Counted from the stretch's first letter, positions 56,501 through 62,650 are shown. The stretch is 64,000 nt of DNA from Escherichia coli (GCF_001677475.2 NZ_CP015229.1); one strand, 5' to 3'. A program made the numbers and translations. Notes: a model not told the origin generated them from the letters alone.

Positions 56501-56598
56501 GCCTGATGCGCTACGCTTATCAGGCCTACATGCACTCTGCAATATATTGAATTTGCGCGATTTGTAGGCCGGATAAGGCGTTCACGCCACATCCGGCA
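56501..56598. repeat. REP/BIME palindromic elements downstream of uvrB
   Basis: gcctgatgcgctacgcttatcaggcctaca and tgtaggccggataaggcgttcacgccacatccggca are typical REP sequences. Confidence 0.85.
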
Positions 56599-56654
56599 TG
56601 AACAACGCGCACTTTGTCTGCAATCTGACGCCGGAATGTTCTTCCGGTTTTCCA

Positions 56655-57563
56655 TTAACCCAACGCCTGTAACGCCTTTTCCAGTGCGTTATGTAACAAC
56701 TGGCGGTCATGACGATAGGGGATATCGCTGGCCTCCAGTACATCCTGAATCACTATTCTGTCGGTGACCGCAGAAACATCCACTTTCGGCCCAACGACGA
56801 CGGCATCAATAACCTTCTTGCCGACATACTGCTCCATAATCGCCAGCTTATTTTCCAGTTTCAGATTCGCCGCTGGTAGGCTAAGTTCACGTCCCAGATT
56901 GCCGATATAGACCATCGGTGCTGGCGTGCGGCGTAATGCTTGCGCCATTTCCTTAAGCAGCAGGATCGGCATCAGGCTGGTATAAAAACTGCCTGGCCCG
57001 ATAAGAATCAGATCTGCTTCATTGATAGCATGTACAGCTTCACGCGTAGCAGGCACATTAGGGGTTAACAGTAATTCCTGAATCGGCGTGGTTAACTGGT
57101 CAATATTTACCTCGCCGTAAACTTCATGCCCCTGATCGTCAATCGCCATCAGATCAACAGGATGCTCCGACATCGGAATCAAATGTGCGTCCACTTTCAG
57201 CAGATTGCGAATCAGATTAATCGCTTCAAGAGGCCGCACGCTAAGGTGATCCAGTGCCTTCAACATCAGGTTTCCAAGGTTGTGCCCGGAAAGTTCGCCA
57301 TTACCGCCGAAACGATATTCAAACATTGCGGAAGCGACGCTGGGTTCAGTTATCAGCTGGTTGAGGCAGTTGCGCATATCGCCCCAGGCAATGCCGCCTT
57401 CTGAGCGGCGAATACGCCCCGTCGAGCCACCGTTATCGGTGGTGGTGACGATACCCGTTAAACGAGAACCCAAAGACGAAAGTGATGAGAGAACGCGTCC
57501 CAGTCCATGCCCTCCGCCGAGAGCAACGACACGATCAAGATCAGCCAGCGTACGATTGCGCAT
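56655..57563 (-). CDS. ybhK: Gluconeogenesis factor / UPF0052 family protein YbhK
   Basis: [20 protein letters not shown]; internal start chosen (302 aa). Confidence 0.92.
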
Positions 57564-57824
57564 ATAGTTTCCTGGAGTCAGATTATCCGCGCTACAGTAG
57601 CGCAAATTGCGGGGAAACAGCAATTAACCTGCCAATATTGAGGATACAAACTATTTTCTTCTACCTCTAAAGGACGATGTACGCTATGACTCCCTGATGA
57701 TGTATATCAAAGTAAAACCGCCATTTTCCCTTATTCTGTAGCGAAATAGCACGATCATGACGCTATATACATGATTACATAGCGAAAGTGTAGATGGTAA
57801 AAATCACATTTACACGCTAGTATC

Positions 57825-57959
57825 GGCTTAACCACTAAACACTCTAGCCTCTGCACCTGGGTCAACTGATACGGTGCTTTGGCCGTGACAATGCTCGTAA
57901 AGATTGCCACCAGGGCGAAGGAAGAAATGACTTCGCCTCCCGTATCTGGAAAGGTGTAC
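57825..57959 (+). promoter_or_regulatory. Molybdenum-cofactor (Moco) riboswitch-like leader of the moa operon
   Basis: Long structured leader (...gcctctgcacctgggtcaactgatacggtgctttggccgtgacaatgctcgtaaagattgccaccagggcgaaggaag...) directly before moaA; boundaries approximate. Confidence 0.55.
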
Positions 57960-58949
57960 ATGGCTTCACAACTGACTGATGCATTTGCGCGTAAGTTTTA
58001 CTACTTGCGCCTGTCGATTACCGATGTGTGTAACTTTCGTTGCACCTACTGCCTGCCGGATGGCTACAAACCGAGCGGCGTCACTAATAAAGGCTTTCTT
58101 ACCGTCGATGAAATTCGCCGGGTTACGTGCGCCTTCGCCAGCCTGGGCACCGAAAAAGTGCGCCTGACAGGCGGTGAGCCGTCTTTACGCCGCGACTTTA
58201 CCGATATCATCGCCGCTGTGCGAGAAAACGACGCTATCCGCCAGATTGCGGTCACCACCAATGGTTACCGTCTGGAACGCGATGTGGCGAACTGGCGCGA
58301 TGCTGGACTTACTGGCATCAACGTCAGCGTTGATAGTCTGGACGCCCGCCAGTTTCACGCTATTACCGGGCAGGACAAATTCAACCAGGTCATGGCAGGG
58401 ATTGATGCTGCATTTGAGGCCGGTTTTGAGAAGGTCAAAGTCAATACCGTGCTGATGCGTGATGTTAATCATCACCAGCTCGAGACCTTTCTGAACTGGA
58501 TCCAGCATCGCCCTATCCAGCTGCGTTTCATCGAACTGATGGAAACGGGCGAGGGCAGCGAGCTCTTCCGTAAGCATCACATCTCTGGTCAGGTTCTGCG
58601 TGACGAGCTACTGCGTCGCGGCTGGATCCACCAATTACGTCAACGCAGCGACGGGCCCGCGCAAGTCTTTTGTCATCCGGATTACGCCGGAGAGATTGGC
58701 CTTATCATGCCGTATGAAAAAGACTTCTGCGCCACTTGCAACCGCCTGCGCGTTTCCTCCATTGGTAAACTCCATCTCTGCCTGTTTGGTGAAGGCGGCG
58801 TTAACCTGCGCGATCTGCTGGAAGACGATACCCAGCAACAGGCGCTGGAAGCGCGTATTTCAGCGGCGCTGCGGGAGAAGAAACAGACCCATTTCCTGCA
58901 TCAAAACAACACCGGTATTACGCAAAACTTATCGTACATTGGCGGCTAA
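57960..58949 (+). CDS. moaA: GTP 3',8-cyclase (Moco biosynthesis, radical SAM)
   Basis: [31 protein letters not shown] radical-SAM cluster motif; internal start (329 aa). Confidence 0.97.
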
Positions 58950-58970
58950 AACGTCAAAAGGAGAGATCAG

Positions 58971-59483
58971 ATGAGTCAGGTAAGCACTGAATTTATCCCG
59001 ACCCGTATTGCTATTCTTACGGTTTCTAATCGTCGCGGTGAAGAAGACGATACCTCCGGTCACTATCTGCGCGATTCGGCGCAGGAAGCGGGCCATCACG
59101 TTGTCGATAAAGCCATTGTGAAAGAAAACCGCTACGCTATTCGCGCTCAGGTATCTGCGTGGATCGCCAGCGACGATGTACAAGTGGTATTGATTACGGG
59201 GGGTACTGGCCTGACGGAAGGTGATCAGGCTCCCGAAGCGCTGCTGCCGTTGTTCGACCGTGAGGTTGAAGGTTTTGGTGAAGTGTTCCGGATGTTGTCG
59301 TTCGAAGAGATTGGCACTTCCACGTTGCAATCTCGTGCGGTAGCGGGCGTCGCTAACAAAACGCTGATTTTCGCCATGCCAGGTTCGACCAAAGCGTGCC
59401 GCACCGCATGGGAAAATATCATCGCGCCGCAGCTGGATGCCCGTACGCGTCCGTGTAATTTCCATCCACATTTGAAGAAATAA
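58971..59483 (+). CDS. moaB: Molybdenum cofactor biosynthesis protein B
   Basis: 170-aa MogA/MoaB-fold ORF. Confidence 0.96.
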
Positions 59484-60799: not shown

Positions 60800-61504
60800 A
60801 TGGACAGATTCCCACGTTCTGATTCAATTGTACAACCCCGGGCTGGCTTGCAAACTTATATGGCGCAAGTCTATGGCTGGATGACCGTTGGCTTGTTGCT
60901 GACCGCATTTGTTGCCTGGTATGCGGCTAATTCCGCGGCCGTGATGGAGCTGTTGTTCACTAACCGTGTCTTTTTAATCGGTCTGATCATCGCGCAATTA
61001 GCATTGGTTATTGTGTTATCAGCAATGATTCAAAAGCTGAGCGCAGGTGTAACGACGATGCTCTTTATGCTTTATTCGGCGCTGACGGGTCTTACGCTTT
61101 CCAGTATTTTCATTGTCTATACCGCTGCTTCTATCGCCAGTACTTTCGTCGTTACTGCCGGGATGTTCGGCGCAATGAGCCTGTACGGTTACACCACGAA
61201 GCGCGATCTAAGCGGCTTTGGCAATATGCTGTTTATGGCGTTAATCGGCATTGTGCTGGCATCGCTGGTCAACTTCTGGCTGAAAAGCGAAGCGTTGATG
61301 TGGGCGGTTACCTACATCGGCGTGATTGTCTTTGTCGGATTGACGGCGTATGACACGCAGAAACTGAAAAATATGGGTGAGCAGATTGATACCCGCGACA
61401 CGTCGAACCTGCGCAAATATTCCATTCTTGGCGCGTTAACCTTGTATCTGGACTTCATCAACCTGTTCCTGATGTTGCTGCGGATCTTCGGCAACCGCCG
61501 TTAA
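60800..61504 (+). CDS. ybhL: BAX inhibitor-1 family inner membrane protein YbhL
   Basis: MDRFPRSDSIVQPRAGLQTYMAQVYGWMTVGLL...; internal ATG at 60800 after GGAG SD; 339-aa ORF-track extension rejected. Confidence 0.92.
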   Translation: MDRFPRSDSIVQPRAGLQTYMAQVYGWMTVGLLLTAFVAWYAANSAAVMELLFTNRVFLIGLIIAQLALVIVLSAMIQKLSAGVTTMLFMLYSALTGLTLSSIFIVYTAASIASTFVVTAGMFGAMSLYGYTTKRDLSGFGNMLFMALIGIVLASLVNFWLKSEALMWAVTYIGVIVFVGLTAYDTQKLKNMGEQIDTRDTSNLRKYSILGALTLYLDFINLFLMLLRIFGNRR

Positions 61505-61523
61505 TTCTTTTTTCACCATCAAT

Positions 61524-61550
61524 ATCCCGGCCATGTGTCGGGATTTTTTT
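61524..61550 (+). terminator. Rho-independent terminator after ybhL
   Basis: atcccggccatgtgtcgggat followed by ttttttt. Confidence 0.7.
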
Positions 61551-61710
61551 CTTACGAAAAAACGACACTTAACAAGTACCAGGTATAAAATATGCCTTAT
61601 GAGCGAGCGGAAGCGTTTTCCGTATCCATAAATAAAAAAGTATTTTGTATGCGTGGCTTTAAATTTATTGATGATAAATATTAATGTTTTTTCTAAGGAC
61701 AACTAAAAGA

Positions 61711-62424
61711 ATGGAATCATACTCGCAAAACAGCAAAAAATTAGATTTTCAGCACGAGGCCAGGATATTAAACGGCGTATGGCTTATTACCGCTTTAGGT
61801 TTGGTGGCAACCGCAGGACTGGCCTGGGGAGCTAAGCATCTCGAAATTACGGCAACAAAATATGATTCACCGCAAATGTATGTCGCCATAGGATTATTAT
61901 TACTTTGTATGTATAGCTTAAGTAAGGATATCAACAAGATAAATGCCGCCATCACGGGCGTAATGTATTTGTTTTTAATCTCTTTGGTGGCGATTGTCGT
62001 TGCAAGTTTAGTTCCTGTACCTGCCATTATCCTTGTGTTCAGCACTGCGGGCGCGATGTTTTTTATCAGTATGCTGGCCGGTTTATTATTCAATGTTGAT
62101 CCTGGTTCTCACCGTTTTATCATTATGATGACGTTGACAGGGTTGGCCCTGGTAATCATCGTGAATGCGGCATTAATGAGTGAACGGCCCATTTGGGTAA
62201 TAAGTTGCTTAATGATTGTGTTATGGTCAGGCATTATCTCGCATGGACGAAATAAGCTCCTTGAACTGGCGGGGAAATGCCATAGTGAAGAGTTGTGGAG
62301 TCCGGTTCGTTGCGCTTTTACAGGTGCATTAATACTCTATTACTATTTTATCGGCTTCTTTGGGATACTTGCAGCAATAGCGATAACGCTTGTCTGGCAA
62401 AGGCATACGCGTTTTTTTCATTAG
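61711..62424 (+). CDS. ybhM: BAX inhibitor-1-like inner membrane protein YbhM
   Basis: MESYSQNSKKLDFQHEARILNG...; internal start (237 aa); AT-richer and hydrophobic. Confidence 0.9.
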   Translation: MESYSQNSKKLDFQHEARILNGVWLITALGLVATAGLAWGAKHLEITATKYDSPQMYVAIGLLLLCMYSLSKDINKINAAITGVMYLFLISLVAIVVASLVPVPAIILVFSTAGAMFFISMLAGLLFNVDPGSHRFIIMMTLTGLALVIIVNAALMSERPIWVISCLMIVLWSGIISHGRNKLLELAGKCHSEELWSPVRCAFTGALILYYYFIGFFGILAAIAITLVWQRHTRFFH

Positions 62425-62584
62425 TCGTAAAAAATAGGTAAGTTTCTCTTTTGGGAAAAATGCGTGTTAATGGTTTTTATATAACCTCATGAATAAAATC
62501 GTGAAGAAATGTAGTGAGGCTGATGCGCTATGCTTAGCCGGTACTGACTGGAATTGTAAACTATTAACTGAGTCCGGTTGTGTT

Positions 62585-62650
62585 GGGCGGATAAGGCGTT
62601 CACGCCGCATCCGCCATGAACAAATAGCACTTTGCTTACAATCTGCAAAA
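62585..62650. repeat. REP element plus conserved flank downstream of ybhM
   Basis: gggcggataaggcgttcacgccgcatccgcc then atgaacaaatagcactttgcttacaatctgc, closely resembling the element after uvrB. Confidence 0.8.

Follow-up and report, generated by a model that had tools for sequence, protein, structure and literature searches.

The composite repeat BIME-1 (BIME, bacterial interspersed mosaic element), known in E. coli since the early 1990s, is also named RIP (repetitive IHF-binding palindromic element) or RIB (reiterative ihf BIME). Its described architecture is an inverted pair of REP sequences, Y and Z1, joined by a long L linker that often carries an IHF site (PMC3333891), the whole forming a single unit of ∼140 bp (PMC1187871). 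BIME-1 elements are extragenic, lie at the 3′ ends of transcription units and are present or absent among isolates (PMC3333891; PMC1187871; title of Boccard and Prentki, 1993). In the literature, IHF is reported to bind the L linker, and effects of REP hairpins on mRNA stability, transcription termination and gyrase binding are described. The spread of REP and BIME sequences is still an unsettled matter, for which a domesticated Y1 transposase has been proposed as the agent.

Classical miniature elements (MITEs) have a short target duplication of fixed length, such as TA, and a cognate DDE transposase. BIME-1 resembles the ERIC/IRU and Correia elements of this class in its ∼150 bp length, terminal inverted repeats, target duplication and 3′-UTR location, and some of them carry an IHF site (PMC3184786), but in BIME-1 an entire hairpin, whose length varies, is duplicated. 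REPINs, REP doublets with an associated RAYT (Bertels and Rainey, 2011; PMC3116915), share with BIME-1 two inverted REPs, folding as one long hairpin and replication as a unit; terminal arms, an IHF linker and flanking target duplications are additional features of BIME-1. The boxC repeat (the PIT/TMECO triplex motif) starts with the same terminal motif as BIME-1 (CAGACTGATGACAAAG or CACATTGTTGATAAAG) right after a terminator hairpin, whereas its core is a G-rich triplex-forming sequence rather than REPs.

The window analyzed here, a 64-kb stretch of DNA, is 96.8% identical to K-12 uvrB..ybhN, confirming the gene names in an earlier note, which had described near-identical sequence past the REP cores after uvrB and ybhM. 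A repeat search of the window bears this out, returning a 65-nt ungapped direct repeat of 85% identity (56563–56627 versus 62581–62645) and a second one of 22 nt and 86% (56503–56524 versus 62520–62541); the offset between the loci is equal for both (6018 and 6017). When the two loci are aligned, as the note had proposed, identity is not confined to the canonical REP core but reaches 29–30 nt past that of the Y REP (56599–56628 and 62617–62645), and matching sequence also lies outside the upstream REP, more weakly in the second copy. A pattern for the flank alone, CATGAACAANNNGCACTTTGNNTNCAATCTG, has two matches in the 64-kb window, exactly at these loci, with none expected from 100 shuffles. 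As the second REP stands upstream at equal spacing, the common unit is ∼150 nt. A third Y REP in the window (33328–33357) lacks the flank, which is therefore no general REP property. The note's composite unit larger than a REP thus corresponds to a conserved block of ∼153 nt with BIME-1 architecture. The parts of copy 1, between uvrB and yvcK, are as follows.

56456–56476, plus strand: left copy of the duplicated target hairpin, GCCGGAATATTTTTCTGGTTT; single hairpin in the empty-site alleles L083 and L084.
56477–56499, plus strand: left (Z1-side) terminal arm, GAGGCTGATGAGAAACGCGAAAT; fits the consensus (T)GAGACTGATGACAAACGCAAAAT of 38 copies and is an inverted repeat of the right arm.
56500–56529, plus strand: Z1-type REP in iREP orientation with a CTAC end, TGCCTGATGCGCTACGCTTATCAGGCCTAC; read from the sequence and invariant or nearly so in alignment A7.
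56530–56563, plus strand: L linker, with the IHF-consensus-like ATTCAATATATTG at 56540–56552 on the minus strand.
56564–56598, plus strand: Y-type REP with 5′ GTAG, GTAGGCCGGATAAGGCGTTCACGCCACATCCGGCA; from the sequence and alignment A7.
56599–56628, plus strand: right (Y-side) terminal arm, the "extended flank" of the earlier note, TGAACAACGCGCACTTTGTCTGCAATCTGA; conservation is at background right after CAATCTGA.
56630–56651, plus strand: right copy of the duplicated target hairpin with its T-run, GCCGGAATGTTCTTCCGGTTTT; from the terminator scan, and a direct repeat of 56456–56476.

Copy 2, between ybhM and ybhN, comprises the following.

62494–62517, plus strand: degenerate left arm; many substitutions relative to the left-arm columns of A7, to which it aligns.
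62518–62544, plus strand: decayed Z1-type REP, GGCTGATGCGCTATGCTTAGCCGGTAC; 86% identical to copy 1 across 22 nt, with the palindrome partly broken.
62545–62581, plus strand: diverged linker, poorly aligned in A7.
62582–62616, plus strand: Y-type REP with GTTG instead of GTAG and a compensated stem change, GGCGGAT...ATCCGCC (pair 29/124).
62617–62645, plus strand: right terminal arm, TGAACAAATAGCACTTTGCTTACAATCTG; supported by the 65-nt repeat, the flank pattern and A7.

Both loci are BIME-1 copies, of which copy 1 is intact and copy 2 is an old, decayed relic. The unit runs from the left arm through the Z1 REP, the L linker with its IHF-like site and the Y REP to the right arm, whose consensus is TGAACAAAGCGCACTTTGTCAACAATCTGA. 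Across 38–53 copies from Escherichia genomes the conserved block measures 153–154 nt and ends in a sharp drop right after CAATCTGA, so that the unit extends past the two REPs and the linker, in keeping with a size of ∼140–145 bp. Both window copies are single units, extragenic and between convergent genes, although another Escherichia species has tandem arrays. Copy 1 shows no difference from BIME-1. It has both inverted REPs, the upstream one assigned to type Z1 rather than Z2 by its short loop. This Z1 REP contains a TGCC↓TGAT site (arrow, point of cleavage), as described for z iREPs (PMC3333891), and the IHF-like ATTCAATATATTG has one mismatch to the consensus WATCAANNNNTTR, its core CAATATATTGAATTTGC being kept in alignment A7. 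Copy 2 retains an intact Y REP but differs from BIME-1 in its decayed Z1 REP and diverged linker, which has no match to WATCAANNNNTTR at up to one mismatch. We therefore regard the flank past the REPs as very probably the outer, right arm of BIME-1; its probable identity with the published outer motifs is based on the reported size and the architecture. Rfam returns only REP-derived matches under the gathering threshold, namely naRNA4 (36.1 and 35.5 bits versus 59.5; one match at 56567–56603) and ES036 (34.7 bits versus 37.6; 56522–56564, minus strand), and the K-12 annotation table for the region lists no repeat features.

Of 5426 complete E. coli genomes, 5425 contain the 30-nt arm consensus, at 3–23 places in each (median 10), which provides the genome-wide count that the note had suggested; per-genome counts taken from the collection of at least 80 listed loci are lower bounds, and the genus range of the arm is not readable from it. 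Among these listed matches, every flank match in the Escherichia group (Escherichia plus one Pseudocitrobacter MAG) lies directly 3′ of a Y REP, and nearly all are preceded by the L linker, with a few variants in which it is altered; about 30 further pattern matches fall in unrelated taxa, without a REP. The sample of BIME-1 copies was chosen through the arm pattern itself; copies ascertained without it also carry the arm, and the arm is absent from Y REPs in arrays that lack the L linker. Whole units are present or absent at both window loci: the ybhM-ybhN copy is found in 34 of 5426 genomes, and strains 98218 and ABU 83972 lack the element at uvrB-yvcK. As first noted, then, the finding is a correct rediscovery of the known BIME-1 from raw sequence and adds nothing new on the family. 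The follow-up results may matter beyond this.

The arms mark the exact ends of the element. They are imperfect inverted repeats, matching at 13 of 16 consensus positions between the left TGAGACTGATGACAAA and the reverse-complemented right end TCAGATTGTTGACAAA, and 84% of cells in the arm pairing are complementary, compared with 30–42% for slid partners. Folded as a whole, the element forms a single long hairpin (z = −5.8). Covariation between the arms does not rise above that of shuffles, so their pairing is a property of the consensus and not evidence of selected structure. In the ∼430 kb of Escherichia-group loci and the window, the end motif is confined to BIME-1.

Outside these ends, a locus-specific hairpin of 12–27 nt, usually a terminator, stands as direct repeats around 20 of 42 copies. 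These 20 exceed the 99th percentile of mismatched-locus controls and their junction positions are constant. A strong hairpin abuts at least one end in 34 of the 42. The sites occupied are stem-loops rich in GC, as a rule intrinsic terminators that lie past a stop codon and ahead of the next gene, and the junctions lie in A/T tracts at the hairpin feet. Empty-site alleles at three loci, uvrB-yvcK, rutG-ymdF and pdeA-nupC, carry the hairpin once, which confirms the hairpin-length duplications; the gudD-barA site (L021) is filled in all E. coli and hence gave no empty allele. Rather than the short, fixed target duplication of a MITE, the duplication is thus variable in length and coincides with the hairpin. 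At copy 1 the direct-repeat score of 15, measured on the E69 ortholog (L028), lies above the control 99th percentile (8.8), and in K-12 the 20-nt left hairpin copy is absent at uvrB-ybhK, one copy having been lost. The check for target-site duplications that the note had recommended therefore succeeds at copy 1, where the terminator hairpin of ∼20 nt is duplicated, and fails at the decayed copy 2, where none can be detected. Its idea of a miniature mobile element holds, given that the element has presence/absence alleles, ends in inverted repeats and stands between target duplications. The rutG-ymdF element is inverted in K-12 relative to another strain; as inversion in situ between two palindromic hairpin copies is possible, this orientation is no proof of independent insertion.

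The mechanism of insertion is much less certain than the identification of the arm. On a tentative reading, somewhat less likely than not, BIME-1 and, through the same end motif, boxC would be miniature elements that target structure, inserting at the feet of intrinsic-terminator hairpins and duplicating each hairpin whole. Insertion would proceed by way of breaks, or of switches between strands, at both feet of the hairpin. A bidirectional terminator would thereby be split into two T-run-bearing copies, one for each converging gene, and both transcripts would cross the element before terminating. At copy 1 the left hairpin (56456–56476) has a T-run next to it on the minus strand and so can be the yvcK-side terminator, while the right hairpin (56630–56651) is a terminator-like site for uvrB on the plus strand, present once in empty alleles. 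Since each gene keeps a hairpin with a T-run, such an insertion would be tolerated. In this way the results explain how an element can enter a bidirectional terminator without abolishing termination of either gene. In strain CFSAN061770, boxC occupies the very same uvrB-yvcK site, where a second hairpin copy was not seen. We know of no transposase with ends matching those of BIME-1.

If the structure-targeting reading is true, the insertion signature is one undescribed for REP-derived repeats in the papers surveyed and a misfit with the usual IS200-type proposal, and it would account for excision of the element as a whole, for its amplification in tandem and for how some solo REPs arose. The defined inverted-repeat ends, the hairpin-length target duplications and the end motif shared with boxC place testable constraints on insertion. 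Neither of the latter two is mentioned in the papers surveyed, which do describe the BIME-1 architecture.

The variable length of the duplication and its coincidence with the hairpin (12–27 nt) would also fit copy-choice without a dedicated enzyme, in which a nascent strand, arrested at a hairpin, continues on a donor BIME-1, then returns upstream of the hairpin and copies it again. The position of the junctions in A/T tracts at the hairpin feet points the same way, as do tandem arrays of BIME-1 plus hairpin (L054, L070 and L074). We nevertheless consider this origin doubtful: copy-choice alone leaves the sharp inverted-repeat ends and their sharing with boxC unexplained. Somewhat less probable again is that the REP-associated Y1 transposase (TnpA-REP/RAYT) acts on the arms, with BIME-1 excised and integrated as single-stranded DNA cut at C↓T (GAC↓TGATG and AATC↓TGA). 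Both arm ends do contain C↓TGA, the element folds as one long hairpin in single-stranded form, and TnpA-REP cuts CT sites within and away from REPs and recombines them in vitro (PMC3333891). However, the IS200-like Y1 family to which this enzyme belongs is described as leaving no target duplication (PMC3333891), in contrast to the hairpin-length duplications seen here; the targets are generic terminator hairpins without GTAG, and the end motif is common to boxC, whose core has no REP.

Returning to the arm itself, its divergence bears on whether it could instead be an independent functional 3′-UTR module kept by selection, for example an RNase or processing site such as the note had suggested, or the stem ACAAAG-CGCA-CTTTGT. 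Both window copies do lie in 3′ regions between convergent genes, a 6-bp stem-loop can be read in the arm, and an influence of REPs on mRNA decay and termination has been reported (bioRxiv 10.64898/2026.03.23.713779). Between orthologous copies, however, the arms and linker have diverged at 8/25, 4/30 and 5/34 positions and the REP cores at only 1/30 and 1/35, the arms thus changing much faster than the cores and also than the surrounding genome (12/55 versus 3.2%). In addition, across ∼430 kb of loci from the Escherichia group and the 64-kb window the arm is never found apart from the rest of BIME-1, and it is covered by no Rfam family. Considered together, these data make a selected module improbable. 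The orthologous copies show decay in place. Conservation of the arm between loci is best explained by its being part of the unit copied as BIME-1 spreads, rather than by a need for it at each one.

A negligible probability attaches to the views that the similarity ends with the REP core, arose by chance or stems from small protein genes conserved on the reverse strand, which are already refuted by the 65-nt repeat, the shuffle test and recurrence at unrelated loci: although ORFs of 81 and 62 codons run across the repeats and hypothetical proteins are annotated across the arm in some RefSeq records, 29–30 nt past the core match with none expected by chance, the same DNA stands at dozens of unrelated loci in both orientations, and the ORFs are unlike in start and length, sharing only the repeat. 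The similar reverse-strand peptides on which the note had remarked are present as described (...DCRQSARCSCRMWRERLIRPT... and ...DCKQSAICSWRMRRERLIRPT...).

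Over uvrB-ybhK(yvcK)-moaABCDE-ybhL-ybhM-ybhN, the window and K-12 are 96.8% identical; the DNA is Escherichia, and the gene names uvrB and ybhM used in the earlier note are therefore correct. A repeat search of the window returns a 65-nt ungapped direct repeat with 85% identity (56563-56627 and 62581-62645), accompanied by a second pair at equal spacing (56503-56524 and 62520-62541, 86% identity). The similarity had been described as continuing past the REP cores, and it does extend beyond the canonical core: CATGAACAANNNGCACTTTGNNTNCAATCTG, which comprises only sequence beyond it, matches twice in 64 kb, at these two loci, with zero matches expected from shuffles. 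ORF translation likewise recovers the similar reverse-strand peptides described for both loci. The first locus, copy 1, has the following layout.

Up to 56443: uvrB, including its stop codon
56456-56476: left hairpin, GCCGGAATATTTTTCTGGTTT
56477-56499: left arm, GAGGCTGATGAGAAACGCGAAAT
56500-56529: Z-type REP, with CTAC at its end
56530-56563: linker with ATTCAATATATTG, one mismatch from the IHF consensus
56564-56598: Y-type REP, with GTAG at its start
56599-56628: right arm, TGAACAACGCGCACTTTGTCTGCAATCTGA, the flank of the earlier note
56630-56651: right hairpin, GCCGGAATGTTCTTCCGGTTTT, also picked up by a terminator scan
From 56655: yvcK stop codon, opposite strand

Judged by sequence, copy 1 is a BIME-1 in every respect. 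Rfam gives only sub-threshold, REP-derived matches to the element. One near-threshold match, to ES036 (CssrF sRNA; 34.7 bits versus 37.6), falls on the L linker at 56522-56564 (-), which suggests that a BIME-1 linker was the source of this family. The 700 nt around the uvrB-yvcK spacer (56200-56900), which take in the 3' end of yvcK, are just 86-88% identical to most E. coli; this divergence is local, the surrounding 8.5 kb being 96.8% identical to K-12.

E. coli BIME-1 is a single-copy unit in which a z1 REP and a y REP are inverted relative to each other; the L linker between them is long and well conserved and frequently has an IHF site (PMC3333891). It is about 140 bp in size and present or absent among isolates (PMC1187871). 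Since two REPs and the linker account for only ∼100 nt, outer sequence must form part of the unit as published. A scan of 100,044 species genomes for the arm pattern TRAACAANNNGCACTTTGNNNNCAA gave at least 80 loci. Among the matches listed, every one in Escherichia and in one Pseudocitrobacter MAG lies directly 3' of a Y REP, and nearly all those of the Escherichia group have the L linker upstream, in altered form in a few variants; ∼30 listed matches in unrelated taxa all lack a REP and are expected chance matches. The arm, with point changes, is also found on BIME-1 copies in the retrieved loci that were not picked by the pattern. Y REPs in arrays lacking the L linker at these loci have no arm, and neither does the solo Y-type REP at 33328-33357 (+) of the window. 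Because the arm accompanies BIME-1 and is missing from Y REPs without the linker, we assign the flank as the Y-side outer arm of BIME-1, rather than a property of REPs in general. The window's solo Y-type REP and a solo Z2-like REP at 27785-27819 (-) also lack the L linker, and the latter, too, has no BIME-1 arms.

The conserved block is 153-154 nt long, as measured by gapped consensus in 53 non-redundant copies and by alignment in 38 copies (mean column identity 88%). Its consensus runs TGAGACTGATGACAAACGCAAAAT, TGCCTGATGCGCTACGCTTATCAGGCCTAC, a linker with CAATATATTGAATTTGCA, GTAGGCCGGATAAGGCGTTCACGCCGCATCCGGCA and TGAACAAAGCGCACTTTGTCAACAATCTGA, and directly past CAATCTGA conservation drops to background. 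The 30-nt arm consensus alone is present in 5425 of 5426 complete E. coli genomes, in at least 3-23 places each (median at least 10), figures that are lower bounds as only close matches pass the threshold. Bachellier et al. 1994 are said to give the length of BIME-1 as 145 nt, and the outer motifs of PU clusters were reportedly named A and B by Gilson et al. 1991. The composite repeat of the earlier note was already known.

The second locus, copy 2 (62494-62645), has the same part order and is a decayed member of the family. Decay has affected the left arm and the Z REP, and the linker has diverged and no longer has an IHF-like site when scored against the consensus; the Y REP and the right arm alone are well preserved. 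The Y REP stem (62586-62615) reads GGCGGAT...ATCCGCC against a consensus of GCCGGAT...ATCCGGC, so that both sides are altered and pairing is kept, the sole case at that pair among the 38 copies. The ybhM-ybhN spacer is 35 bp in K-12; here copy 2 brings ∼70 nt of additional AT-rich DNA, located between the ybhM stop and the relic (62425-62493), with no K-12 counterpart. This arrangement is shared, at 96% identity, by only 34 of the 5426 complete E. coli genomes.

Each arm is an imperfect inverted repeat of the other: the left TGAGACTGATGACAAA matches the reverse complement of the right end TCAGATTGTTGACAAA at 13 of 16 positions. In the 38 copies, complementarity holds for 84% of the arm cells, versus 30-42% with the partner slid by 1-3 columns. 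As single-stranded DNA, the consensus is predicted to fold into one long hairpin with the arms at its base (-34.9 kcal/mol, z = -5.8). Covariation of the arms in the same copies is equalled by shuffles, so the pairing reflects a symmetrical consensus and gives no evidence that a structure is under selection. Orthologous copies differ mainly in the arms and linker, with REP cores that barely change, while the surrounding genome differs by 3.2%.

Divergence of BIME-1 parts between orthologous copies (window versus K-12; three other orthologous pairs)
Left arm: 8/25; 16.7%
Z1 REP: 1/30; 2.2%
L linker: 5/34; 20.0%
Y REP: 1/35; 4.8%
Right arm: 4/30; 6.7%, most positions being fixed by ascertainment

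The arm is thus not kept constant at a locus, and its likeness between loci reflects copying of the whole unit.

At many loci an identical GC-rich, locus-specific stem-loop adjoins both ends of BIME-1. When the 40 nt flanking the element on the left are compared with the 40 nt flanking it on the right, 20 of the 42 canonical copies score above the 99th percentile (8.8) of a control of different-locus pairings (mean 5.1), with scores up to 27. These target-site duplications are direct repeats of 12-27 nt, different at each locus; copy 1 has one, and none was detected around copy 2. Their positions are fixed: the left hairpin copy ends just 5' of GAGA-CTGATG and the right begins 1-4 nt past CAATC. 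In 34 of the 42 copies, a strong hairpin abuts the element on one side or both.

Empty alleles settle the duplication at three loci. At uvrB-yvcK, the intergenic region of strains 98218 and ABU 83972 is 37 nt long and contains a single hairpin, GACGAAGCCGGAATATTCTTCCGGCTTCGTG, which in the window stands on either side of BIME-1; K-12 has lost the left hairpin copy in a 20-nt gap. At rutG-ymdF, CCGCCGGGGTAACCGGCGG occurs once in the empty allele and twice in filled alleles. The elements of K-12 and SCPM-O-B-8794 lie there in opposite orientations, each flanked by two hairpin copies, reflecting either independent insertion or in-situ inversion between palindromic repeats. At pdeA-nupC, most E. 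coli have one CCGGGGAATTATCCCCGG, and E. whittamii has BIME-1 between two copies. In E. coli MFDS1022581 an internally deleted element, just the left arm and Z1 REP, lies between the hairpins, suggesting one route by which solo REPs arise.

BIME-1 thus has defined inverted-repeat ends, sits at terminator-type hairpins that are duplicated around it, and occurs with empty alleles and in tandem arrays. Insertion may proceed via staggered breaks or strand switches at both hairpin feet. A bidirectional terminator would be split, with the minus-strand gene served by the T-run of the left copy and the plus-strand gene by that of the right; a T-run per strand is readable at 56456-56476 and 56630-56651, respectively. 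Both convergent transcripts would traverse the element before terminating beyond it, so insertions would be tolerable. Direct hairpin repeats would also permit whole-element loss and tandem amplification. Spread by copy-choice at stalled hairpins, which fits the variable duplication length but leaves the defined ends unexplained, strikes us as unlikely. Less likely still is insertion by the REP-associated Y1 transposase, which cleaves at CT sites in vitro (both BIME-1 ends contain C|TGA) but belongs to a family described as making no target duplication (PMC3333891). That the linker binds IHF and that REPs affect mRNA comes from published work (PMC3333891, PMC3184786, bioRxiv 10.64898/2026.03.23.713779).

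BIME-1 is MITE-like in its size, its terminal inverted repeats and its target duplication, but that duplication is neither short nor fixed in length. No cognate transposase with BIME-1 ends was found in ∼430 kb of Escherichia-group loci and the window. In CFSAN061770, the uvrB-yvcK hairpin is followed by boxC where the window has BIME-1. This repeat and three others (together L085, 371-476; L090/L093; L091/L094; and L092) start directly after a terminator hairpin and open with CAGATTAACGATCAAG, CAGACTGATGACAAAG, CACATTGTTGATAAAG or (TC)AGACTGATGAAAACG, the BIME-1 arm motif, so the end motif looks like a module common to the two repeat families. The gntP boxC copy runs on into an inverted right arm and REP. 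The literature covered, to which the primary papers of the 1990s do not belong, yielded no mention of a duplicated hairpin, of ends that are inverted repeats or of an end motif in common with boxC; that these are new is a tentative and somewhat doubtful claim.

Published BIME-1 is single-copy, whereas tandem arrays occur in Escherichia sp. MOD1-EC7003 and E1V33. Those at L054 (2459-2659), L070 (11556-12380) and L074 (793-1517) repeat element plus hairpin, and some array units, captured hairpin included, are 160-176 nt long. Other units, of 107-115 nt, fuse the right-arm start ATGAACAA to the left-arm end CGCAAAATTGCC (L073, L077 and L080). Elsewhere in the window, a molybdenum cofactor riboswitch lies upstream of moaA at 57828-57972 (+) (Rfam RF01055, 103 bits versus a gathering score of 36), an expected and known feature.
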